DNA of 41,504 nucleotides from an uncultured Candidatus Peribacteria bacterium (GTDB taxonomy: Bacteria > Patescibacteriota > Gracilibacteria > Peribacterales > Peribacteraceae), in contig CAYGDT010000001.1 in assembly GCA_964348745.1 (NCBI GenBank), positions 1 through 41,504 on the forward strand, read 5' to 3'. Position 1 is the first letter of the stretch. Each line of letters begins with the position of its first letter. Under the pieces are notes generated by a model. The model searched no databases and was not told the origin of the DNA. It saw only the letters and a list, made by a program, of their open reading frames with translations. Below, piece by piece: positions 10,687 through 33,753 of this stretch. The position numbers and the translations under genes were made by a program.

Positions 10687-13600
10687 ATGTTTTCACTCTG
10701 TTCCTCCGACGATGCCAAGCGGCTTTACGCTTCTGTATGCGCCTCGCAACTGAGCGAACGTGCGAAGAAACGCTTGGACTGGATTGTGTACTACCTTGAG
10801 AACGGCAAGTCTATCAGTGAGACGTGCAGGATGTTTTCGATTTCACGCAGTACGTTTTACCGTGTGATTGAACGATTTGATCCTGCGGATATCACATCAC
10901 TGGAGGATAAGCCACACGCACATTGTTTGCGCTCACATACGGAACTACCGGCGGTTGCGATGGAACGCATCCGCGACGAACGGAAGAGGGAGCCGACAAT
11001 AAGTCGAGAGCGTATCGCAGAAATTCTCGCATCGGAATGCGGTATCGCTGTCTCTCCTTCTTTGATAGGCCGCATTATCAATCGCGAAGGATTGTTTTTT
11101 GGTGCGAGTCTCGCACATCAGAAGAAAAGGATCGAAAAGACAGCAGTGCAGGATGTAGATCATTCAGCAATTGCAGTCGGAAACTCTGCTCCCACATCAT
11201 CAAAATTGCTATTTGTACCTACTCGCCTGACGCTGATGACTCTGAGTATCGGCATCATTATAGCAGCCATGGTCGGAGGAAGTTTAACGGCTACAGTATT
11301 GTCTTCACCGAAGAGAGAAAACATTTCGGATGATCTTGTTATACGATGTGAGGAAGTTCTCAGAACATTTGCTTCGGTGCTTTCGTGGTATAAGCAACAT
11401 GGCAGGCAATATGAAGTGTCTGAAAGTGAGCAGATTGAACTCGATGCGTGCCGAAGCATTATCGACGGCCACACAAAGAACAAATCGTCTACCCTAAAAC
11501 CACTGGGGGCTGCCCTGCGATCAATTCTGAGCATTCCGCGCGCATATGCTGCAGAGGGTATTTTTAAGAAAATTCCGTACCAAGGAAATGTAACACTGAC
11601 ATCGGGAGCAGGGATGAGCAACGGCCAGTACAATATGCGCTTCAAAATCTTTGATGCGGCAAGCGGCGGGACGGAATTATGGTCTGAAACATGGGACAGC
11701 AATACACAACCTGTGACGATGACCGGAGGACTCTTTACAGTGTATCTCGGGACGCATATTGCAATGAACAACGTAGACTTCAATACGGATTCACTCTACC
11801 TCCAAGTGCAGTTTGACCCAGGAAATGACGATGTCTACGAGGAAACATTCTCACCGAGACGCAGGTTCGCATCCGTTCCGTATGCGCTAAATTCCGACAA
11901 AGTAGACGGTCTCGATGCCACGCAGTTTCTCCGCAGTGATGCAAGCGATGTGATGAGTGGCTCTCTGCTCATCCACCAATCTGGACAATCCGTATCGGGA
12001 GCAGATGCTCGGGTACAACTGGAAATCATCGGTACTGCATCTGGGAGAGTTCTGCATGCACAAGACCTGCTGACATCCTCCGGCAAATTGATTGTTGAGG
12101 GAACATCTTTGCTCTACGGCTATGTTGATATTTTTCGAATGCTCTCGATACATGACACGGCATCCGGAAGAGTACTGCACGCTGAAGATTCACTGCAATC
12201 CTCTGGATCACTCATCGTAGAAGGTGAAACAACGCTTAATGGTGCGCTGGTTCTCGGTTCCACTATCCGTATTAACGGTGTTACCTACACCTTCCCTGCT
12301 GGTGATGGCTCTGCTTCTGGCAAAGTACTCAAAACAAACGGCACAGGACAGCTCGCTTGGTCTAGCGACACTACTGGGTCAACATATTATGCTGGCGCAG
12401 GCCTATCGCTCAATGGCGCAAACTTCCTGTCCCTCTCTTCGACACTTACCGGTACCTCCTTGGAGATCACCGGTACGGCAAGCGGAAGAATCGTCCATGC
12501 GCAAGATCTCCTTCGCTCCTCCGGAGCACTCATCGTGAAAGGTACTACGCGCCTGCAATCAGGAGCCATTATAAGAATGGCGGCACCACTCCTTATCCTC
12601 CGTAGTAGTGTAACTTCCCAGCAGTGGGAGTTGAAAGGTGGCAGTACTTTATCGTCTTCTTTTAGTATCTATGATGCCACAGCAAAGAAAATCAGATTCG
12701 TGGTTGGCGGCTCAGACGGCAATACTACGATCGGTACTGGTGTGTCTGTCAGCAACAGCCGACTATACGTCTGGGGAGGTCCCAACGGTGCGAATATTGA
12801 CGTCCGGGGAGATGCTTCCATTGTTGGGGGCGATCAGTCGACCATAGAGCTTGAGGGCAATAACTATGATGTCGACCCCAATTCCATTCGCATGACGTAC
12901 TATGGTGCTAGCCATGGCATCGGGACAACCATGGGATACAGTAACAATAAACTCGGCGTGCTCGCATGGCAGGGCGTTAATACAGCCATCATTGCTGTGC
13001 AAGACATCAAACCTCTTCTCTTTGGTACAAGCAATAAGGAACGCATGAGACTGACCGAGACTGGTTCTCTTGCGATTGGAACTGCGACACCGGGTCGCTC
13101 TAAATTGGCTGTCTCCGGTTCTACGATTATGGGTTTCAATATTGGCTCCGCAGCCGCCGACGCAGGACTTGCACTCGAAGTCCTCGGTACGGCATCCGGT
13201 CGTATCTTCCATGCGCAAGACGAACTGCGCTCCTCCGGTACTCTGATCGTCGATGGAACCACAACGCTCAACGGTGCGCTGGTTCTTGGTTCCACTATCC
13301 GTATCGGTGGGGTCACCTATACCTTCCCTGTCGGCGATGGCTCCGCATCGGGCAAAGTACTCAAAACAAATGGTGCAGGGCAACTCTCTTGGTCAACCGA
13401 TAGCACTGGAGGAGGTGGATCGTACTACGCAGGCCAAGGCCTGTCTCTCAACGGTAGTAACTTCCTCTCCCTCGCAGCCACCCTCACAGGAACATCTCTG
13501 GAAATCTACGGAACAGCTTCCGGAAGAATCCTCCATGCACAAGACCAACTGCGTTCCTCCGGCACACTGATTGTGAAAGGAACAACACGCCTGCAATCAG

Positions 13601-16600
13601 GTGCTATCATCAAAATGACGTCACCACTCCTCGGTGACGGTCTCCAATTCATCATCGACCAGTCGCAGATCAGCGGTCCGGGACGTATTATGGCGATCGA
13701 TGATAATGTTGGTTCGGAAATCTTTGCTATCAACAAGTATGGATTCATAAAAACTGAGCGCGGCTATGTGTCCTACGATGGATTCATGGGACAAGAGTTC
13801 AATGACGAGAGAGCATCTGCTGCAGCCGACCTTGCGACACGCGGCGATGACGGGACATGGGTGTTCGACGAGGGAGCAGCGACATCCACCTGTACCGACA
13901 TCGTAGCGGAGGGCTCAATAAGTTTCGACCGTATGACTAACTCCGCCACACAACCAGCAGGCTGTGCCATGTTCATGGGAATCGGAGTCGGAGACATCAT
14001 GGGATTCACTAATGCTGCGAACTTGCCGCGCACGCTCATTAAGATACGACCGGGTCGCGCTACTGCCGATGCGCATACATGGGCTGGACTCTTTATCGAT
14101 TGGGCTCCCTCCGCAACCGAACCAACAGAGGGTATTTACTTCACCAATGCTGCGGGCGGTACATGGACCGGCCGCATTAACCCCGCATCCGGAGCGAGTT
14201 CAGATGTTGTCTGTACCGGGCAAACCATCTCGACAACACAGTTTGCTGCATTAGAAATTATCGTTGAGAGCTCGACCATCGTCCGTTTCAAAGTAGATAA
14301 TGACTTATCAAACGGTATTAACTTTGTAGACTGCGGCACGGGAAACCCTAGTGGCGTCACCAGTAACTTGGGGGCAGGTGTGTTTATGGGTACCACCTCC
14401 ACGACTAGCTTTACTATGGATACGGATTACGTTCGTGTATGGACAGATGACCCAAAAACAAGTGGGCAGTCCGTCGTGCAGACTCCAGAAACGCCAACAG
14501 AGCTGGATCTTACAACGAGTGCCGACCTCGCCGAAGCATACCCTGCCATCGACGCAGGAAGTTTTGGAGCCGGTGAGCTCGTTTCCATAGACGAAAAAGG
14601 AGATGGAAGTGTGCGAAAAAGTAAAAATCCATACGAGAAAAATTTGATCGGCGTCGTGAGCGCATCACCCTACGATGTCATGGGTGCGCAGTCGGAGAAT
14701 ACCGTAGCCATAGCACTAGCCGGACGTGTACCTGTAAGAGTCTCGACGGAGAACGGGCCTATTGCTGTGGGCGAATCCATCACCTCTTCTTCGAAGCCCG
14801 GCATCGGTATGAGAGCAAGTTCAGCAGGCCCAATCATCGGGAAAGCAATGCAAGCGTACGATGGTCAAGGTGAAGGTATCATTATGGTGTTTGTCTATGC
14901 AGGAGACTACGTCGGTGATGGGCTGTACCTGCTTGGCAGCGGCGCAAACACAATAGGTGAAAGCACTCAAAATTCCGGCACTTCAGCTGAGTATGCGGAA
15001 TGGTTTAAAGTATCAAACGATCATCCGATCGCCGGCGAAGTAGTTTGTATCGATCCGACAACACCGCAATCCGTTGCATATTGTGCAGATGAGCCGAGTG
15101 AAAACATCGTTGGCATTGTCGCCACGAGAGCGCAAATCGTAGGCAATGAATTTACAGGAGTACAGGGACTGCCTGTACCCGGTCACGTTCTGGTTGGCCT
15201 CATGGGGCAGACAACTGTAAAAGTCACTACTTTGGAAGGCAAATCCATTCGCATCGGAGATGCTCTCACTGCAGCAAGTACGAAAGGATTCGCACGCAAA
15301 TCGATCCGAGGTGAACCGACTATCGGGGTTGCTTTGGAAGAATTCACAGGTGAGGACGGCACAATTTCCATCCTTATATCCCGCAACAATGCTTCGCACA
15401 CTATGCAAGAAATCGAACAGAAGATACTCGATACCGTTGCGAGCATGGGACTCACCGAAAAGATGCAGAGCATCATCGCGCAGAGTATTGATACACTCGA
15501 CTTCGGTTATTCGATTAAAGAAGAAGTACGCGAGCAGCTACTGGCTCTCTACCTCTCGGAACCGCAGACTGCCGATGCACCATCTGTGAAACCGACACTT
15601 CCTGAGTTACTTACGCACGCACGCTCGTTCTCCGGTTCTACTCTGTTTGCTGGAAATGTCGAAGTTCAAGGAGCCCTTTCCGTGAGCGGACCTGTGAATA
15701 TGAGTGGCAGTCTCACCGTTGCCGAAATTCTTCGAACATCGCATCTCACCGCCTCAGGAAACCTCACTGTCGGTGGCTCCGCGCGTATCATGGGCGATGC
15801 CTATGTCGAAGGCACGCTGACCATCGCTTCGCTTATTGTGCCCGATGCTCTACATGTATATGGAGACATGACCGTACAAGGCTTCGTACAAGCGTATCAT
15901 CTTTCTGCCTCCAGTGGGGCAACCATCCGCGGGTCGATCGACATCGATACGCAGACAGGGTCGATCCGCATAGGATCCGGTTCTATCTCCATCAAATCCG
16001 GAAATATGATCCTCGAGAATGGAAGTATCGATGTGCAAGAACTCATCGTCCGCAAAGCGCTGTTACTCCACGGAGACATTACCGTAGAGGGTCTTGCTGT
16101 CTTCCTCGGCAATCTCGAAGTCCGCGGAGACCTGATTTTGAGTGACCGCCAGGCAGGATTTGCAGAGATTCCTGCCGGAGTAAGCAGTGTCAGAATCTCG
16201 TATGGAACAGGATTCATCGCAACTCCGATCATCACGGCAACACCGATGAGTCGTCTTAATACATCGTGGTGGATCGATGCTGTGACAAGCTCCGGGTTTA
16301 CGATCTTCTCTGCAGATCCCGTACCGCAGAATGCTCTCTTCTCATGGAATGCGATGCTCACAAACAATCCGAAAACCTTTAAAGGAACTGATAGTGAAAA
16401 AATACTGATCGACTTCCCCGTCGATTCATACGGTGTACCTCTCTCGAGCAACCCCGCTTGGAATGCATGCATCAGAAATCAAACACTCATTGATGAAGAA
16501 TCGGGAAAACCATTCAACTGCAGTCGCTACCATCAAGAACAGTTATGGACCCAGCCGGATCTGCTTCTGGAATTCCTCTACGATCCTGAGGCAAGCCCGA

Positions 16601-16971
16601 AATTTACGTTGCCGGATAACTATCGTATCGTTACGATCGAAGATACGAATAGTCAACGTGATCCATTGCCTGTAGGCGATGAAGAGGGATCCGAAGTGGT
16701 AGAAGAGAAAGTGGTAGGAGAGGAAATAGAAGAAGTAGAGGAAGTAGAAGGAGGAGAGGAAGTTGAAGAAGTTGAAGAAATAGAGGAAATTGAGGAAGTA
16801 GAAGGAGGAGAAGCGGAGAGCGAATCCGGGGCTGGATCTCAAATACCTCCAGTGGAATCAGAGGAAAATATTCAAGAGGAGCAACCGAAAGAAGTATCGA
16901 ACGAACAGAATGACACTACACAACAAACGCCAACAGAGACCGTGAATCCGGTTGAGGATACTGCGTCATAG
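10687..16971 (+). CDS. Giant (2094 aa) HTH - TM - tail-fibre-like surface protein
   Basis: One uninterrupted ORF.
- aa 25-135: transposase-type HTH (ISETCRMFSISRSTFYRVIERF...LEDKP...RERIAEIL...SPSLIGRII).
- aa 180-205: one TM helix.
- Fibre-type motifs follow (IPYQGNVT...YNMRFKIFD...LWSE; SVPYALNSDKVDGLDATQFLRSD).
- Five copies of TASGR[VI]xHA[QE]DxLxSSGxLIVxG and a duplication of about 155 aa.
- Two DLAEAY/YAEWF...VALAGRVPV-type modules.
- A beta-helix-like G/V/S-rich region.
- A WNACIRN module and an acidic E/V tail. Confidence 0.8.
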   Translation: MFSLCSSDDAKRLYASVCASQLSERAKKRLDWIVYYLENGKSISETCRMFSISRSTFYRVIERFDPADITSLEDKPHAHCLRSHTELPAVAMERIRDERKREPTISRERIAEILASECGIAVSPSLIGRIINREGLFFGASLAHQKKRIEKTAVQDVDHSAIAVGNSAPTSSKLLFVPTRLTLMTLSIGIIIAAMVGGSLTATVLSSPKRENISDDLVIRCEEVLRTFASVLSWYKQHGRQYEVSESEQIELDACRSIIDGHTKNKSSTLKPLGAALRSILSIPRAYAAEGIFKKIPYQGNVTLTSGAGMSNGQYNMRFKIFDAASGGTELWSETWDSNTQPVTMTGGLFTVYLGTHIAMNNVDFNTDSLYLQVQFDPGNDDVYEETFSPRRRFASVPYALNSDKVDGLDATQFLRSDASDVMSGSLLIHQSGQSVSGADARVQLEIIGTASGRVLHAQDLLTSSGKLIVEGTSLLYGYVDIFRMLSIHDTASGRVLHAEDSLQSSGSLIVEGETTLNGALVLGSTIRINGVTYTFPAGDGSASGKVLKTNGTGQLAWSSDTTGSTYYAGAGLSLNGANFLSLSSTLTGTSLEITGTASGRIVHAQDLLRSSGALIVKGTTRLQSGAIIRMAAPLLILRSSVTSQQWELKGGSTLSSSFSIYDATAKKIRFVVGGSDGNTTIGTGVSVSNSRLYVWGGPNGANIDVRGDASIVGGDQSTIELEGNNYDVDPNSIRMTYYGASHGIGTTMGYSNNKLGVLAWQGVNTAIIAVQDIKPLLFGTSNKERMRLTETGSLAIGTATPGRSKLAVSGSTIMGFNIGSAAADAGLALEVLGTASGRIFHAQDELRSSGTLIVDGTTTLNGALVLGSTIRIGGVTYTFPVGDGSASGKVLKTNGAGQLSWSTDSTGGGGSYYAGQGLSLNGSNFLSLAATLTGTSLEIYGTASGRILHAQDQLRSSGTLIVKGTTRLQSGAIIKMTSPLLGDGLQFIIDQSQISGPGRIMAIDDNVGSEIFAINKYGFIKTERGYVSYDGFMGQEFNDERASAAADLATRGDDGTWVFDEGAATSTCTDIVAEGSISFDRMTNSATQPAGCAMFMGIGVGDIMGFTNAANLPRTLIKIRPGRATADAHTWAGLFIDWAPSATEPTEGIYFTNAAGGTWTGRINPASGASSDVVCTGQTISTTQFAALEIIVESSTIVRFKVDNDLSNGINFVDCGTGNPSGVTSNLGAGVFMGTTSTTSFTMDTDYVRVWTDDPKTSGQSVVQTPETPTELDLTTSADLAEAYPAIDAGSFGAGELVSIDEKGDGSVRKSKNPYEKNLIGVVSASPYDVMGAQSENTVAIALAGRVPVRVSTENGPIAVGESITSSSKPGIGMRASSAGPIIGKAMQAYDGQGEGIIMVFVYAGDYVGDGLYLLGSGANTIGESTQNSGTSAEYAEWFKVSNDHPIAGEVVCIDPTTPQSVAYCADEPSENIVGIVATRAQIVGNEFTGVQGLPVPGHVLVGLMGQTTVKVTTLEGKSIRIGDALTAASTKGFARKSIRGEPTIGVALEEFTGEDGTISILISRNNASHTMQEIEQKILDTVASMGLTEKMQSIIAQSIDTLDFGYSIKEEVREQLLALYLSEPQTADAPSVKPTLPELLTHARSFSGSTLFAGNVEVQGALSVSGPVNMSGSLTVAEILRTSHLTASGNLTVGGSARIMGDAYVEGTLTIASLIVPDALHVYGDMTVQGFVQAYHLSASSGATIRGSIDIDTQTGSIRIGSGSISIKSGNMILENGSIDVQELIVRKALLLHGDITVEGLAVFLGNLEVRGDLILSDRQAGFAEIPAGVSSVRISYGTGFIATPIITATPMSRLNTSWWIDAVTSSGFTIFSADPVPQNALFSWNAMLTNNPKTFKGTDSEKILIDFPVDSYGVPLSSNPAWNACIRNQTLIDEESGKPFNCSRYHQEQLWTQPDLLLEFLYDPEASPKFTLPDNYRIVTIEDTNSQRDPLPVGDEEGSEVVEEKVVGEEIEEVEEVEGGEEVEEVEEIEEIEEVEGGEAESESGAGSQIPPVESEENIQEEQPKEVSNEQNDTTQQTPTETVNPVEDTAS
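12142..12594 (+). repeat. Internal duplication, copy 1 (about 150 codons) within the giant gene
   Basis: Peptide ...DTASGRVLHAEDSLQSSGSLIVEGETTLNGALVLGSTIRINGVTYTFPAGDGSASGKVLKTNGTGQLAWS...TLTGTSLEITGTASGRIVHAQDLLRSSGALIVKGTTRLQSGAIIRMAAPLL. The similarity to copy 2 is also obvious at nucleotide level (for example ggtgcgctggttctcggttccactatccgtat). Confidence 0.85.
13168..13632 (+). repeat. Internal duplication, copy 2 within the giant gene
   Basis: Peptide LALEVLGTASGRIFHAQDELRSSGTLIVDGTTTLNGALVLGSTIRIGGVTYTFPVGDGSASGKVLKTNGAGQLSWS...TLTGTSLEIYGTASGRILHAQDQLRSSGTLIVKGTTRLQSGAIIKMTSPLL. It lies about 1.03 kb downstream of copy 1. Confidence 0.85.
16681..16825 (+). repeat. Purine-rich low-complexity coding repeat (acidic E/V/G tail of the giant protein)
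   Basis: GAA/GAG/GTA/GGA codon runs encode EEKVVGEEIEEVEEVEGGEEVEEVEEIEEIEEVEGGEAESE. Confidence 0.8.
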
Positions 16972-28693: not shown

Positions 28694-28770
28694 CGGGATG
28701 TAGCTCAGTTGGCTAGAGCGCGTGATTCGGGTTCACGAGGTCGAGAGTTCAAGTCCCTCCATCCCGACCA
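28694..28770 (+). tRNA. tRNA-Pro (anticodon CGG), CCA encoded
   Basis: CGGGATGTAGCTCAGTTGGCTAGAGCGCGTGATTCGGGTTCACGAGGTCGAGAGTTCAAGTCCCTCCATCCCGACCA. The acceptor stem is CGGGATG/CATCCCG and the D-stem is GCTC/GAGC. The anticodon stem is CGTGA/TCACG with loop TTCGGGT. The T-loop is TTCAAGT. Confidence 0.9.
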
Positions 28771-28803
28771 GCCTTCGCTCCTCTGCGGAGGAGCTATGGC
28801 TGG
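28768..28803 (+). other. tRNA-Pro 3-prime trailer hairpin that includes the encoded CCA
   Basis: CCAGCC-TTC-GCTCCTC-TGCG-GAGGAGC-TAT-GGCTGG (6 bp / 3x3 internal loop / 7 bp / tetraloop). The first three nt are the tRNA CCA end. Confidence 0.6.
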
Positions 28804-28829: not shown

Positions 28830-30497
28830 ATGCAGAAGACGTGTAAAAATTGTGGCGACTCATTTGGGATCACTCGGGACGATCTCGCATTTTACGACCG
28901 TGTTGCGCCAACATTTGACGGAATCCACGAACCAATTCCATCACCTTCTAATTGTCCCGCATGCCGTCAACAATCTCGTCTCATTCATAAAAATTTCTTC
29001 AACTTCTACAAGCGGACATGTTCCATGACGGGGGAGAACATCATTTCCATGTACAAAGAAGATGCACCCTTTCCGGTATATGACATTCGTTTTTGGTGGA
29101 GCGATGCATGGAATCCGTTAGAGTTCGGCCAAGAGGTCGACCATGGCAAATCTTTTTTCGAGCAAATGCAGAGTTTGTCTGTCCGTGTACCACGACCGGC
29201 GAATGTCGTTGTTCAGTCCGATAATTCGGATTATTGCAATTATTGCTTTGAAACGAGAAATTCATACTTAATCGGGGGATCAGTACGGAACGAAGATTGT
29301 GCATTCGGACACATCGTCTGGGATTCCAAGAACTGCGTCGATTGTCTGCATGTTTTCCGTTGCGAACTCTGCTACGAGTGCATCGCATCCAGCGACTGCT
29401 ATGCTATTTGCTACGCAAAAGATTGCGAGAATTGCAGTGATAGTTGGTATCTCGATGATTGCGTCGGTTGCAAATCGTGTTTCGGTTGCGTAGGACTGCG
29501 TAACAAGGAATATCATATTTTCAACATCCCCCATTCCAAGGATGACTATGAGACTACCATGCAAAAACTGTTACAGACTCCCGTTGAAGTAAAAGACCGC
29601 ATGAAGGAGCTGCAAAAAACACACATCGTGAAATGCTTGCGCAGCATCGGATCGGAAAACGTAACTGGCGATTATATTTTAAACAGTCGCAATATCCGAT
29701 CTTCATTTGATCTAAAGAACTGTGAAGATTGTGCATATTGCGGTACACTGAACGGTTTCAAGGATGCCATGGACTGTGATTACGCCGCTACTCCCTCGGA
29801 GCTGACCTATAACAGCATGACCAGCTACGGGTATGCCATCCTCTGCAGCTCCAATTGTATGGCGGTCAGTTCCAATCTTACGTATTGTGACACATGCTTT
29901 TCCTGTAAGAATTGCTTTGGCTGTATTGGTATGCGTAATGCACAGTTCTGCATTTTGAATAAGCAGTATTCACAGGAAGATTTTGAGCAATTGGCTGCCA
30001 AGATTGTTGAAAAAATGAAGAGTGACGCGGAATGGGGCACATTTTTCCCGTCTTCCCTGTGCCCTTTTGGCTACAATGAAACGCTCGCATTTGAGTTTTT
30101 CCCCCTGACAAAAGAGCAGGCCATCGAAAGTGGTTTTTCATGGAGTGATTACAATCCTCCTCCGCCGCAAGCTCAGAAAACCATCCCCGCCTCGGCGCTT
30201 CCGGGCAACATAGAAGACGTACCGGATGATATTCTCCATTGGGCGATCTCTTGCGAGGTATCAGGTCGTCCGTTCAAGCTCATAAAACTGGAATTGGATT
30301 TTTACCGCAAAATGAAGTTAACAGTTCCTCGCATGCATCCTGACGAACGCCACCGTCAAAGAATGAGTGTGCGAAATCCGCGTGTACTACACAATCGGGA
30401 GTGTGCGAAGTGCAGTAAGGCAATCGAAACGATCTATACTCCTGATCGTCCCGAAATCGTCTATTGCGAGGAATGCTATTTGAAGGAAGTGTACTAA
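28830..30497 (+). CDS. Cys-rich protein of unknown family, paralog A (555 aa)
   Basis: Start trimmed to ATG 28830, because the track start at 28722 lies inside tRNA-Pro. No signal peptide or TM segment; about 40 Cys by hand count. It has N- and C-terminal zinc-ribbon-like C-x2-C pairs and two internal Cys-rich blocks ending in CFGC[VI]G[LM]RN. It is a full-length paralog of 30574-32244. Confidence 0.8.
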   Translation: MQKTCKNCGDSFGITRDDLAFYDRVAPTFDGIHEPIPSPSNCPACRQQSRLIHKNFFNFYKRTCSMTGENIISMYKEDAPFPVYDIRFWWSDAWNPLEFGQEVDHGKSFFEQMQSLSVRVPRPANVVVQSDNSDYCNYCFETRNSYLIGGSVRNEDCAFGHIVWDSKNCVDCLHVFRCELCYECIASSDCYAICYAKDCENCSDSWYLDDCVGCKSCFGCVGLRNKEYHIFNIPHSKDDYETTMQKLLQTPVEVKDRMKELQKTHIVKCLRSIGSENVTGDYILNSRNIRSSFDLKNCEDCAYCGTLNGFKDAMDCDYAATPSELTYNSMTSYGYAILCSSNCMAVSSNLTYCDTCFSCKNCFGCIGMRNAQFCILNKQYSQEDFEQLAAKIVEKMKSDAEWGTFFPSSLCPFGYNETLAFEFFPLTKEQAIESGFSWSDYNPPPPQAQKTIPASALPGNIEDVPDDILHWAISCEVSGRPFKLIKLELDFYRKMKLTVPRMHPDERHRQRMSVRNPRVLHNRECAKCSKAIETIYTPDRPEIVYCEECYLKEVY

Positions 30498-30498
30498 C

Positions 30499-30572
30499 GA
30501 GCTTGTAGCTTGTAGCTGATAGCTTGCAAATTTTATTTTCCCTATAAGCTGTAAGCTATAAACTATAAGCTC
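30499..30572. repeat. Simple-sequence inverted-repeat hairpin between the two Cys-rich paralogs
   Basis: The left arm GAGCTTGTAGCTTGTAGCTGATAGCTTGC (30499-30527) was compared with the reverse complement of the right arm ATAAGCTGTAAGCTATAAACTATAAGCTC (30544-30572). They match at 22 of 29 positions by hand count, and several of the mismatches are transitions. The loop is AAATTTTATTTTCCCT. Confidence 0.65.
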
Positions 30573-30573
30573 T

Positions 30574-32244
30574 ATGAAAAAATCCTGCACCCAATGCTCG
30601 GCATCCTTTGCCATCACGGAGGAAGATCTTGCATTTTACGATAAGGTTTCACCGATATTTGGAGGAAAGAAACAAGCAATTCCTCCTCCTACGTTCTGTC
30701 CCGAGTGTCGCATGCAGCGCAGAATGTCACACCGAAATATCAGACACCTTTATCGAAGTGTATCATCCAAGAGCGGCGAAACTCTGCTTTCAATGTACGC
30801 CCCGGAATCAAACTTCACTGTCTATAGCCAGAATGAATGGTGGAGCGACGACTGGAATCCGTTGCAATACGAACAACCAGTCGATCTTTCCAAGTCATTC
30901 TTTGCACAATTTGGAGAACTGCGAAAGCTGGTTCCACGCTTCAACGTCTATAACCGCGAAAGCGAGAATTGTGAGTATGTGAACTATGCGCCGCACAATA
31001 AGAACTGCTATCTGCTCTTCGGTTGCTGGTTTGACGAAGACTGTTTCTACGGTGACACAATGATGGAGTGCAAGAATTGTGTTGATGGTCTGAACGTGGA
31101 GCGCTCTCAGCTCTGCTATGAGCAGGTCGATTGTGACAACAACTACAACTCAATCTACTGCCAAACATGCAGCGAAACAACGGACAGTGCCTGTTGCTTT
31201 GATTGTCGCGGCGTACAGCACTGCATCGGCTGTTGGAATTTGCGAAATAAGCAGTACCATATTTTCAATGAACAGGCGTCAAAGGAAGAGGTAGATGCAC
31301 TGCGCGCTCAGTTTTCGAACTATGAATTCACCAAAAAATTCTTACAAGATTTTCGACTACGTAAGCAGAAGCAAGCCATTCACAAAGCCGTGGATGGAAG
31401 CAACAACGAAAACTGTACCGGCGACTTCCTCTTCGATTGCAAGAATGTATATTTCGCTTTCGTTGGATATAGGAGTCAGGATGTGCGCTACGCCTCACGA
31501 TTTATCGATCAGAAAGACAGTGCTGATCTCGAAGGAGTCGGTAAAGGAGAATTGGTCTATGAGTCAATGTGTAATGATTTCGCGTATAGCAGCATTGGAT
31601 GTACCACATGTGAGAATTTAAAATCCGTTTTCTATTCCGATCTCTGCTTTAATTGTAAGGATTGTTTCGGATGCATTTCCCTTCGTAACAAGCAATACTG
31701 CATTCTCAACAAACAATACACTAAAGAAGAGTATGAAACGCTGGTGCTTCGCATTATCGAACATATGAAAAAGATTGGTGAATGGGGCGAGTTCTTCCCT
31801 ATTCAACTTTCTCCGTTTGCGTACAACGAAACACTGGCCCAGGAATTCTACCCCTTATCAAAGAGAGACATTGAGGAGAATGGGTGGGAATGGCGCGATG
31901 AAGAAGAACCGCCAAAAGTCGAAAAAGTGATCCCAGCATCTCAACTCCCCGACTCCATCAAAGACATTCCCGACGACATCCAAAATTGGGCAGTCGAGTG
32001 TGAAGTAACAGGTAAGCCGTTCAAAATCACATCGCAAGAACTTCGATTTTATCGTGAACAGAATGTACCCATGCCGCGACGCAGCCCAGATCAGCGGTAT
32101 CTAGATCGTTTTCATCAACGCAACCCTCGCAAATTCTGGAACCGCAAATGCGCCAAATGCAAAAAAGATATGCAAACGACCTACGCTCCTGATCGTCCCG
32201 AAATCGTCTATTGCGAATCCTGTTACCTCGCAGAGGTATACTGA
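30574..32244 (+). CDS. Cys-rich protein of unknown family, paralog B (556 aa)
   Basis: Same architecture as paralog A: CTQC...FAITEEDLAFYDKV...CPECRMQRR; WWSDDWNPL; CIGCWNLRNKQYHIFN; CFNCKDCFGCISLRNKQYCILNKQY; PFKITSQELRFYRE...RNPR...CAKC...PDRPEIVYCESCYLAEVY. Confidence 0.8.
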   Translation: MKKSCTQCSASFAITEEDLAFYDKVSPIFGGKKQAIPPPTFCPECRMQRRMSHRNIRHLYRSVSSKSGETLLSMYAPESNFTVYSQNEWWSDDWNPLQYEQPVDLSKSFFAQFGELRKLVPRFNVYNRESENCEYVNYAPHNKNCYLLFGCWFDEDCFYGDTMMECKNCVDGLNVERSQLCYEQVDCDNNYNSIYCQTCSETTDSACCFDCRGVQHCIGCWNLRNKQYHIFNEQASKEEVDALRAQFSNYEFTKKFLQDFRLRKQKQAIHKAVDGSNNENCTGDFLFDCKNVYFAFVGYRSQDVRYASRFIDQKDSADLEGVGKGELVYESMCNDFAYSSIGCTTCENLKSVFYSDLCFNCKDCFGCISLRNKQYCILNKQYTKEEYETLVLRIIEHMKKIGEWGEFFPIQLSPFAYNETLAQEFYPLSKRDIEENGWEWRDEEEPPKVEKVIPASQLPDSIKDIPDDIQNWAVECEVTGKPFKITSQELRFYREQNVPMPRRSPDQRYLDRFHQRNPRKFWNRKCAKCKKDMQTTYAPDRPEIVYCESCYLAEVY

Positions 32245-33015: not shown

Positions 33016-33753
33016 CTATAAAGATTGCCACACCCGCTCGAAGACTACTCGCTGGGTGGATGCGAGAGTTGTGCTGAAAATCTCGATGGCTGCAACTTGA
33101 TTTTCTCCATACGTAATCATGCAGATTCTGTCTTTGCAAATGATGCAGTCTGATAGGAATTTTACGGCCTCAGGCAGAATTTTTATTTGATGGCGTTTTG
33201 AATGAAAGCCATTTTTATATGCGCGTGCTTCCTTGCAATCAACAATGATCTCTTTTGCCTCACCCTTATGGGTGCTGAGGATTTCAGGAATGATATTGAG
33301 ATAGGCTGGCACCATGCTTTTCACAACTGCTGGATTGAAAAAGGAGTAGAACTGTTCGTCATGCGCCAGCGACTCATACATCTTCATCACTGCCTCTTTC
33401 CCCTCTAAAAACTTCACTTTTGGCGTGACGCTCAATGTGTTTTCAAGCGTCTCCAACGTAGGCAATTTTTCTTTCAGAAGCAGTAATGTTTCTCTGATAT
33501 TCCTCTCGTCAGCCTTCAGAACATCGGCAATGTCTTTCACCGGAATACATTTTACATATTTGATGCCTGTGCGCTCAAATTCCTCAATGAGACGATGCCC
33601 TTTGAGTTTCTCCACAATAAAATACATGGAGGAACGAGGTATACCTACATGCTTTGCAATGACACTGATCGGTTGTGCCCCGAGTGGCAGTAATTTCATA
33701 AAAGTCTCGGTTTCCTTTTCGTTGAGCCCTAGTTTGGAGAAGAGTTCATCCAC
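33016..33753 (-). CDS. TrmB-family transcriptional regulator
   Basis: N-terminal winged HTH LGLNEKETETFMKLLPLGAQPISVIAKHVGIPRSSMYFIVEKLKGHRLIEE, followed by a C-terminal effector-type domain of about 160 aa. Confidence 0.75.
   Translation of the reverse strand: MDELFSKLGLNEKETETFMKLLPLGAQPISVIAKHVGIPRSSMYFIVEKLKGHRLIEEFERTGIKYVKCIPVKDIADVLKADERNIRETLLLLKEKLPTLETLENTLSVTPKVKFLEGKEAVMKMYESLAHDEQFYSFFNPAVVKSMVPAYLNIIPEILSTHKGEAKEIIVDCKEARAYKNGFHSKRHQIKILPEAVKFLSDCIICKDRICMITYGENQVAAIEIFSTTLASTQRVVFERVWQSL

Follow-up and report, generated by a model that had tools for sequence, protein, structure and literature searches.

A tandemly amplified family of double-finger proteins with predicted Cys-lined solenoid blocks in Peribacteria and related lineages

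Proteins of about 90 residues that combine the PF13451 and PF23477 domains, which NCBI names 'zinc-ribbon domain containing protein', are the described proteins with homology to both ends of the protein family reported here. For the wider setting of this family, two further systems are relevant. The X-Tfe effectors of Xanthomonas have in common an XVIPCD domain by which VirD4 coupling proteins recognise them, and Peregrinibacteria and Gracilibacteria are bacteria with genomes of about 1.3 Mb that are thought to live on other bacteria. We analysed a stretch of 41,504 nucleotides (nt), called the window in the following, from an uncultured Candidatus Peribacteria bacterium (contig CAYGDT010000001.1 of assembly GCA_964348745.1), which contains two tandem genes, A and B, for Cys-rich proteins with such double-finger ends. 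A survey of Patescibacteria counted 5,713 VirD4-like genes, of which just 148 lie near virB4, and raised exaptation as a possibility (PMC12102498).

The A–B pair and its family

We assign A and B with good confidence to a huge, lineage-restricted and tandemly amplified family, whose members contain a double-finger unit at each end, two central blocks that are predicted to be solenoid-like, and a conserved alpha/beta region (Table 1). The original prediction, made from the nucleotide sequence, had described two same-strand, full-length paralogs that were 35–45% identical by eye and carried about 40 and 34 Cys residues by hand count. Both estimates hold: the proteins are 44% identical end to end (BLASTP, E 8e-172), and exact counting gives 40 Cys in A and 34 in B.

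A word-indexed search returned 4,759 relatives. When 1.84 billion representative proteins were searched with a profile, 5,598 clusters matched at E≤1e-3, of which 4,027 reached E≤1e-10 and 2,453 reached E≤1e-30. The matches listed individually are all family members; they comprise the best 120 of the word-indexed search, which are 484–595 residues long (most about 545–565), and the best 150 of the 5,598 clusters, nearly all of which match end to end. At least 592 places in the GTDB species genomes encode a relative. As judged from nearly all matches, the family is confined to Peregrinibacteria, Peribacteria, Gracilibacteria and Abawacabacteria, and the 78 retrieved loci, which come from 63 assemblies, belong to these groups or to unclassified Patescibacteria. 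Two outlier contigs, labelled as a Micrarchaeota archaeon (L042, DUGF01000091.1) and as Paceibacterota (L054, JBAYFP010000008.1), are probably binning or labelling errors rather than signs of a wider distribution.

The window pair is a small array. Copy counting with tblastn found at least two same-strand copies in 59 of 82 loci, and the largest arrays are those of L008 (11 copies in 21.6 kb) and of L050 and L068 (nine copies each). Neighbouring copies are only 35–45% identical, as expected of old duplications that have not been homogenised, and gene conversion between adjacent copies was rejected on this ground. The content of the arrays differs even in close relatives, as the ortholog of A with 84% identity is followed by a gene for a major facilitator superfamily (MFS) transporter and not by B. 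Three consecutive variants of about 510 residues in L088 (11595–16225, minus strand) align to A 1–514 only and lack the C-terminal finger.

That the family is unrecognised, as originally stated, is borne out by the database searches. No family in Pfam, NCBIfam or PADLOC matched A or B above threshold. Below threshold, their last 35 or so residues (518–552) resemble zf_Tbcl_2 (PF23477) and TIGR04272, with PF23477 scores of 18.7 bits for A and 18.4 bits for B against a cut-off of 27; the Pfam scan gave no match to PF13451 at E≤1 for either protein. Among 66 family members, PF23477 was detected in 48 and PF13451 in seven at E≤0.01. Sequence and profile searches of the PDB gave just a 30-residue LIM-like match to the last finger, and Foldseek returned nothing significant for the full predicted model against PDB and BFVD or for a model of the central blocks against PDB. 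Pfam and NCBIfam scans of A and B recognised no catalytic or nucleotide-binding motif. Among the matches listed, all named homologs are called 'hypothetical protein', and we found no description of the family in the literature. Two published candidates were rejected: the Cys-rich proteins of a Peribacteria paper are different proteins, large (580–3,860 residues) and secreted, and the Gracilibacteria 'hypervariable gene' encodes an unrelated PTD-repeat protein.

The public call of gene A (P0001) is a protein of 490 residues that starts at M66. It matches A at 100% over 88% of the length, omits window positions 28830–29024 and lacks the first zinc finger of the N-terminal unit. Judged by the family alignment and by the N-terminus of the 84% ortholog, both of which back the 555-residue form, the public call is too short, and 65 codons are to be added at its start. 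An alternative, longer open reading frame (ORF) initiated by GTG from 28722 would overlap the upstream tRNA gene, and the ATG at 28830 fits the N-termini of the homologs. The sequence of gene B is found exactly in the public collection. A hydrophobicity scan detected no membrane-spanning segment in A, in B or in 255 of 260 family ORFs, and a signal peptide is excluded by the position of the first zinc knuckle, which begins at residue 5. Both findings agree with the cytoplasmic location that had been proposed.

Architecture, selection and the cysteine ladder

Each end of A consists of a double-finger unit, and the two units are complementary: the N-terminal unit keeps the first Cys4 finger, and the C-terminal unit keeps the second (Table 1). 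Residues 4–90 are homologous to residues 474–551 (hhalign probability 99.8%, E 2e-29), and block 127–248 is homologous to block 272–393 (99.9%, E 9e-36), so that the internal symmetry seen by eye extends to both the ends and the centre of the protein. A free-standing PF13451 protein of 94 residues, which comes from the lineage to which A belongs, matches A at both ends, over residues 3–92 (BLASTP, E 2e-15) and 474–554 (E 6e-20). The module that had been called zinc-ribbon-like at the N-terminus is a zinc-ribbon or treble-clef type finger, and the fingers are predicted to bind zinc. The sequence motifs that had been listed for A and B are likewise real and conserved in the family, as seen in alignments of 66 and 186 sequences. 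Each block ends with a CFGCxGLRNKxYxI[FL]N motif followed by a helix, and the most conserved stretch of the family, EWGxFFPxxxSPFxYNETxAxE, lies between block 2 and the C-terminal unit. Among paralogs, entropy is lowest in residues 361–435.

The central blocks are predicted to be solenoid-like. AlphaFold2 (AF2) modelled the full-length protein with a predicted local distance difference test score (pLDDT) of 83.3 and a predicted template modelling score (pTM) of 0.84, with values above 90 at the ends; a model of residues 118–401 from a deeper alignment reached 82.8 and 0.79, respectively. Both blocks are modelled as 4-residue strands that alternate with 2-residue turns. With this predicted model as query, Foldseek returned 34 weak matches in the PDB, all of which are left-handed beta-helices (best E 1.8, template modelling (TM) score ≤0.26).

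The solenoid and finger parts also occur in a split form, in which a solenoid-only gene (about 320 residues) is directly followed by a double-finger gene of 92–94 residues (PF13451 and PF23477). Its presence in two loci, L093 and L091 (Table 1), indicates that the two parts are tied functionally. A distant small double-finger homolog (29% identity) is encoded on the Pusillibacter faecalis megaplasmid NZ_AP023421.1 (L092, 6004–6282), 38 nt downstream of a gene for a sigma-70-family sigma factor; this single case hints at an anti-sigma-like role of the free-standing double-finger form.

Table 1. Coordinates of gene A, gene B, their parts and other features, in the window or in the related locus named
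Feature	Sequence	Position	Strand	Description and basis
tRNA-Pro(CGG)	Window	28694..28770	+	Just upstream of A, not part of the feature; ARAGORN
Gene A	Window	28830..30497	+	555 residues, family member; ORF and translation
N-terminal double-finger unit	Window, A 1–92	28830..29105	+	First finger Cys4 (C5/C8/C42/C45); second finger degenerate, only C64
Solenoid-like block 1 (predicted)	Window, A 127–248	29208..29573	+	CFGCxGLRNKxYxIFN cap, then helix; hhalign, Cys period, AF2
Solenoid-like block 2 (predicted)	Window, A 272–393	29643..30008	+	Cap and helix; hhalign, AF2, ortholog conservation
Alpha/beta region	Window, A 394–470	30009..30239	+	EWGxFFP...SPFxYNETxAxE, then variable acidic linker; entropy, pLDDT >90
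C-terminal double-finger unit	Window, A 474–555	30249..30494	+	First finger degenerate (C475, H503); second finger Cys4 (C525/C528/C546/C549)
A–B spacer	Window	30498..30573	+	76 nt with short direct repeats; sequence, repeat family D4
Gene B	Window	30574..32244	+	556 residues; paralog of A, architecture alike
TrmB-like winged-helix regulator	Window	33016..33753	-	245 residues; PF01978, E 1.7e-9
Split form	L093	6004–7279		Beside divergent TrmB gene
Split form	L091	9268–11602		Directly after VirD4-like ATPase gene
710–740-residue protein	L002	14662–16827
710–740-residue protein	L035	6851–9055
710–740-residue protein	L090	9289–11427

Selection was computed for A against its 84% ortholog. The overall ratio of nonsynonymous to synonymous substitution rates (dN/dS) is 0.06 (dN 0.088, dS 1.42), and this strong purifying selection shows that the genes are functional. 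Block 2 is the most conserved region between the orthologs (93% identity, dN/dS 0.017), followed by block 1 (90%, 0.028), the C-terminal region 471–555 (86%, 0.071), the mid region (78%, 0.101), the N-terminal region 1–125 (76%, 0.092) and the inter-block linker (63%, 0.21). Paralogs show the reverse order: the blocks and the linker have the highest entropy, and the finger units, the block caps and the mid region have the lowest. As the blocks are tightly conserved in orthologs but variable in paralogs, we read them as paralog-specific, and the rest of the protein as serving a shared function.

The Cys residues had originally been taken as more than 15 potential C-x2-C metal sites, a claim that does not survive the 186-sequence alignment. 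Only the two Cys4 sets are conserved as sets, with C5/C8/C42/C45 present in 87–96% and C525/C528/C546/C549 in 98–100% of the sequences. Outside the fingers, C214/C217 (92–95%), C365 and C374 (97% each) are also near-invariant, C374 being His in four sequences. The other central columns contain Cys in 40–85% of the members, with Ser, Val, Leu, Ile, Thr or Ala in its place elsewhere. These residues follow a regular spacing: central Cys recur at every third residue with a 12-residue super-period, and in block 1 the Cys frequency has an autocorrelation of 0.69 for lag 3 and of 0.63 for lag 12. The columns are almost independent of one another, and the alignment contains no tetrads that are present or absent as a whole. 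At positions 181/184/187/190, for example, all four Cys occur in 60 sequences, where chance alone predicts 44.5, and the other 126 have at most three. The number of central Cys per member ranges from 16 to 38, and members from organisms with genetic code 25 have Ser, Ile or Val at the ladder positions. An intact member of 590 residues in L073 (CP060226.1, 11892–13664, genetic code 25) has eight Cys in total, misses both Cys4 sets and carries Ser, Ile, Val or Leu along the ladder; in L036, L048 and L073, TGA must be read as Gly. Because the central Cys are replaceable and vary almost independently, they are preferred but dispensable ladder residues and not 15 or more obligate metal sites. Fe-S or metallothionein-like Cys clusters were rejected, given the lack of invariant ligand sets in the alignment and the member with eight Cys.

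Gene neighbourhoods and possible roles

ORFs from 80 family-centred loci were clustered. More often than any other neighbour, a TrmB-like regulator (44 ORFs, about 250 residues) accompanies the family; it directly flanks a family gene in 30 of 44 cases and is usually encoded divergently at the head of an array or between copies. The regulator of the window falls in a recurrent regulator cluster (cluster 1), together with 39 others from 32 loci. It faces a 2-oxoglutarate- and iron-dependent (2OG-Fe) dioxygenase gene (PF10014, 33840–34694), which is divergent from it, and not the array. The second recurrent neighbour is a VirD4/TraD/HerA-like ATPase of 745 residues (16 ORFs in 15 of the 80 loci), named 'type IV secretory system conjugative DNA transfer family protein' at NCBI. 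The ATPase is 55–78% identical across the lineage, and a hydrophobicity scan found no membrane segment in it. In 11 of the 16 cases the ATPase ORF directly follows a family gene of the same orientation, after a spacer of 19–366 nt (mostly 19–85 nt).

The association was also recovered in the reverse direction. Around seven ATPase genes on long contigs, picked regardless of the family, family genes lie within 3 kb of the ATPase in five loci. L085 has three family genes upstream and four downstream, L088 has five upstream and one downstream, and L089 has a single one; in L090 the gene order is ATPase, a 712-residue protein, TrmB and family genes, and L091 contains split pieces of the family. Downstream of the ATPase, no gene is conserved except that for an unannotated protein of about 720 residues. 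Proteins of this type (about 710–740 residues, 0–2 hydrophobic segments, no Pfam or NCBIfam match) repeatedly follow the ATPase and precede a TrmB gene and the next array (Table 1).

On these grounds, we tentatively favour a reading of the family as paralog-specific binding proteins that dock through a conserved base on the orphan VirD4-like ATPase, as exported effectors or cargo adaptors, and are subject to TrmB-like control. The base, made up of the two zinc-finger units and the alpha/beta region, would serve as a common handle and would carry the two beta-solenoid-like blocks as a paralog-specific binding surface. The likeliest partner of the handle would be the soluble VirD4/TraD-like ATPase, which we take in this role because its gene often closes or interrupts the arrays. 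The family proteins would then be clients of the ATPase, either exported effectors or cargo adaptors, and divergently transcribed TrmB-like regulators would probably control expression of the arrays. The binding role of the blocks, the interaction with the ATPase and export are steps that we infer. More doubtful is a wider version of this proposal, in which the dozens of diversified solenoid proteins per genome would form the client repertoire of a repurposed type IV secretion or coupling machinery of Patescibacteria and would be delivered to the bacterial host of these episymbionts or capture material from it.

Several observations weigh against the docking proposal. No translocation signal, toxin domain or enzyme domain was recognised in the family, and a folded protein that binds zinc would make an awkward substrate for secretion. 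No homolog of the ATPase lies within the 41.5-kb window, no family gene was found near the ATPase in L086 and L087 (two of the seven reverse-test loci), and the surroundings of the arrays showed no further component of type IV secretion. Gene adjacency among related genomes may, moreover, reflect inherited synteny. The AF2 models from which the solenoid fold is predicted have pLDDT values of about 60–90, and the fold has no significant Foldseek match.

Among the rival explanations, it seems unlikely that the family acts in nucleic-acid binding, as transcription or RNA regulators or in DNA handling, with basic finger units that bind and a solenoid that modulates or recruits. In this case any link to the ATPase would run through DNA and not through protein export, and VirD4-type ATPases are DNA-coupling proteins in conjugation. 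The charge of the parts is consistent with this idea: the free-standing double-finger protein is basic (isoelectric point (pI) 8.9, charge +5) and highly conserved, and the C-terminal unit of A has a pI of 9.1, with 10–11 in its first module. R46/R50/N55 and R507/R511/N516 are invariant on the helix that follows the knuckle, and the only weak structural matches of the full model in Foldseek are zinc-finger DNA binders and HNH proteins. The whole protein, however, is acidic (pI 5.4, charge -12 to -15), as are the solenoid blocks (pI 4.5–5), which disfavours nucleic-acid binding by the solenoid. In addition, no DNA- or RNA-binding family was matched above threshold, a genome of about 1.3 Mb would hardly need ten or more regulators of a single type, and one member does without both Cys4 fingers. 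Of the functions suggested originally, a scaffold or binding protein is still a candidate, and nucleic-acid binding by the finger units is possible.

We consider it similarly unlikely that the proteins work inside the cell as structural proteins, scaffolds or enzymes and are functionally unconnected to the ATPase, in which case their neighbourhoods would reflect synteny and the collection of duplicated genes in variable regions. Invariant polar residues (Q112, N132, D171, N232, D315, N377 and E488) would fit such a role, as would the window and the two ATPase loci that lack the association and the unconserved genes downstream of the ATPase. The association nevertheless spans orders in which the ATPase is only 55–58% identical, the short same-strand spacing argues for a tie between the genes, and the scans revealed no catalytic or nucleotide-binding motif that would speak for an enzyme.

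An origin as mobile or defence-island cargo, for example as an immunity-like or anti-phage sensor family, is improbable. Toxin–antitoxin pairs (MazEF-, RelE-, HicAB- and Phd/YoeB-like) and genes with an ORF6N domain separate family copies in L008, L021, L022, L024, L026, L032, L058 and L076, which places the arrays in plastic regions, and the differing array content of close relatives would agree with such an origin. Against it, PADLOC gave no match, tblastn found no relative in phage and plasmid collections, and IMG/VR contributed a single family fragment at the end of a contig. The paralogs are also old and under strong purifying selection, and they contain no nuclease, nucleoside triphosphatase (NTPase) or other effector domain.

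A role in metal binding, metal storage or redox chemistry is very improbable and the least supported of the functions suggested originally. In its favour, A has 18 CxxC pairs, Cys is preferred at every third position (40–95%), a C-x2-C-x2-C-x2-C run at 211–220 is 81–95% conserved, and C/H exchange at 229, 374 and 503 hints that one or two further metal sites may exist. Against it, the central Cys are replaceable and nearly independent as described above, and no Fer4, metallothionein or rubredoxin match was found in the Pfam and NCBIfam scans of A and B.

Two further parts of the context had been thought to be meaningful. A tRNA gene does lie directly upstream of A, but no tRNA neighbour is conserved in 60 related loci, and the idea that the tRNA marks an integration site or is a constant partner of the family was rejected. 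The DUF5674-like pair was likewise rejected as a conserved neighbour, since the DUF5674 gene and its partner both form singleton clusters. Upstream of the tRNA-Pro gene there is a promoter-like TGGACA-19 nt-TATACT sequence, so that A may perhaps be co-transcribed with the tRNA. A 7-bp GC-rich hairpin without a T-run (GCTCCTC-TGCG-GAGGAGC, 28777–28794) is located between the tRNA gene and A. The terminator scan found no terminator-like site between A and B, and the A–B spacer contains the direct repeat CTATAAGCT[GC]TA twice (30542–30553 and 30563–30574), with a AGCTTGTAGCTTGTAGCTGATAGCTTG repeat preceding the copies; these repeats may be an operator or promoter element. Elsewhere in the window, an ORF of 2,094 residues (10687–16971) carries a helix-turn-helix region at its N-terminus, matches a FapA-type beta-solenoid weakly and is otherwise unannotated.

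With thousands of members, and at least 15 kb of sequence in some genomes, the family represents a major unexplained investment. It has no name in the versions of Pfam and NCBIfam that were searched and merits a profile model of its own. An earlier study was unable to assign the orphan VirD4-like ATPase to any cluster of secretion genes (PMC12102498), and the recurrent link between arrays and ATPase offers a concrete hypothesis for what this ATPase handles.

Relation to described systems

The X-Tfe effectors, like the members of this family, combine a variable module with a part that paralogs have in common, and a neighbourhood is shared with a VirD4-like ATPase, for the family in part of the loci. 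The family differs from X-Tfe in having no sequence relation to them, no toxin domain and no paired immunity genes. Unlike the partner of X-Tfe, the ATPase of these bacteria is a soluble protein whose gene lies apart from virB4 (PMC12102498), and its proposed interaction with the family proteins and their export are hypotheses.

Left-handed beta-helix proteins such as GlmU, LpxA/LpxD and gamma-carbonic anhydrase form the class to which all weak Foldseek matches of the blocks belong, none of them significant; AF2 models the blocks with 4-residue strands and 2-residue turns. In contrast to the hexapeptide repeat [LIV]-G-x2-[STAV]-x, the inward-type positions of the family occur at every third residue with a 12-residue super-period, and Pfam Hexapep gave no match at E≤1 in A or B. 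A further lead is the antifreeze protein of Tenebrio molitor, a narrow, Cys-rich beta-helix with a 12-residue repeat. The family shares with it the small residues (Cys, Ser or Ala) at every third position and the 12-residue repeat. It differs in being cytoplasmic, where disulfides are not expected, and in tolerating Val, Leu or Ile in place of Cys, and no structural match to the antifreeze protein was returned. The central blocks are a candidate for a new kind of Cys-lined solenoid.

The free-standing PF13451 and PF23477 proteins share the signatures CxxC...CPxCRxxxR and CxKC...YCxxCY with the family. Unlike these proteins, family members contain two double-finger units, each with one degenerate finger, that are separated by about 380 residues, and A and B score below the Pfam cut-offs. 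In the literature searched, we found no account of the family, of its architecture with two double-finger units, of the Cys ladder with its period of three, of amplification on this scale or of a link to an orphan coupling-type ATPase; the domain types from which the proteins are built, treble-clef fingers and a predicted beta-solenoid, are known.

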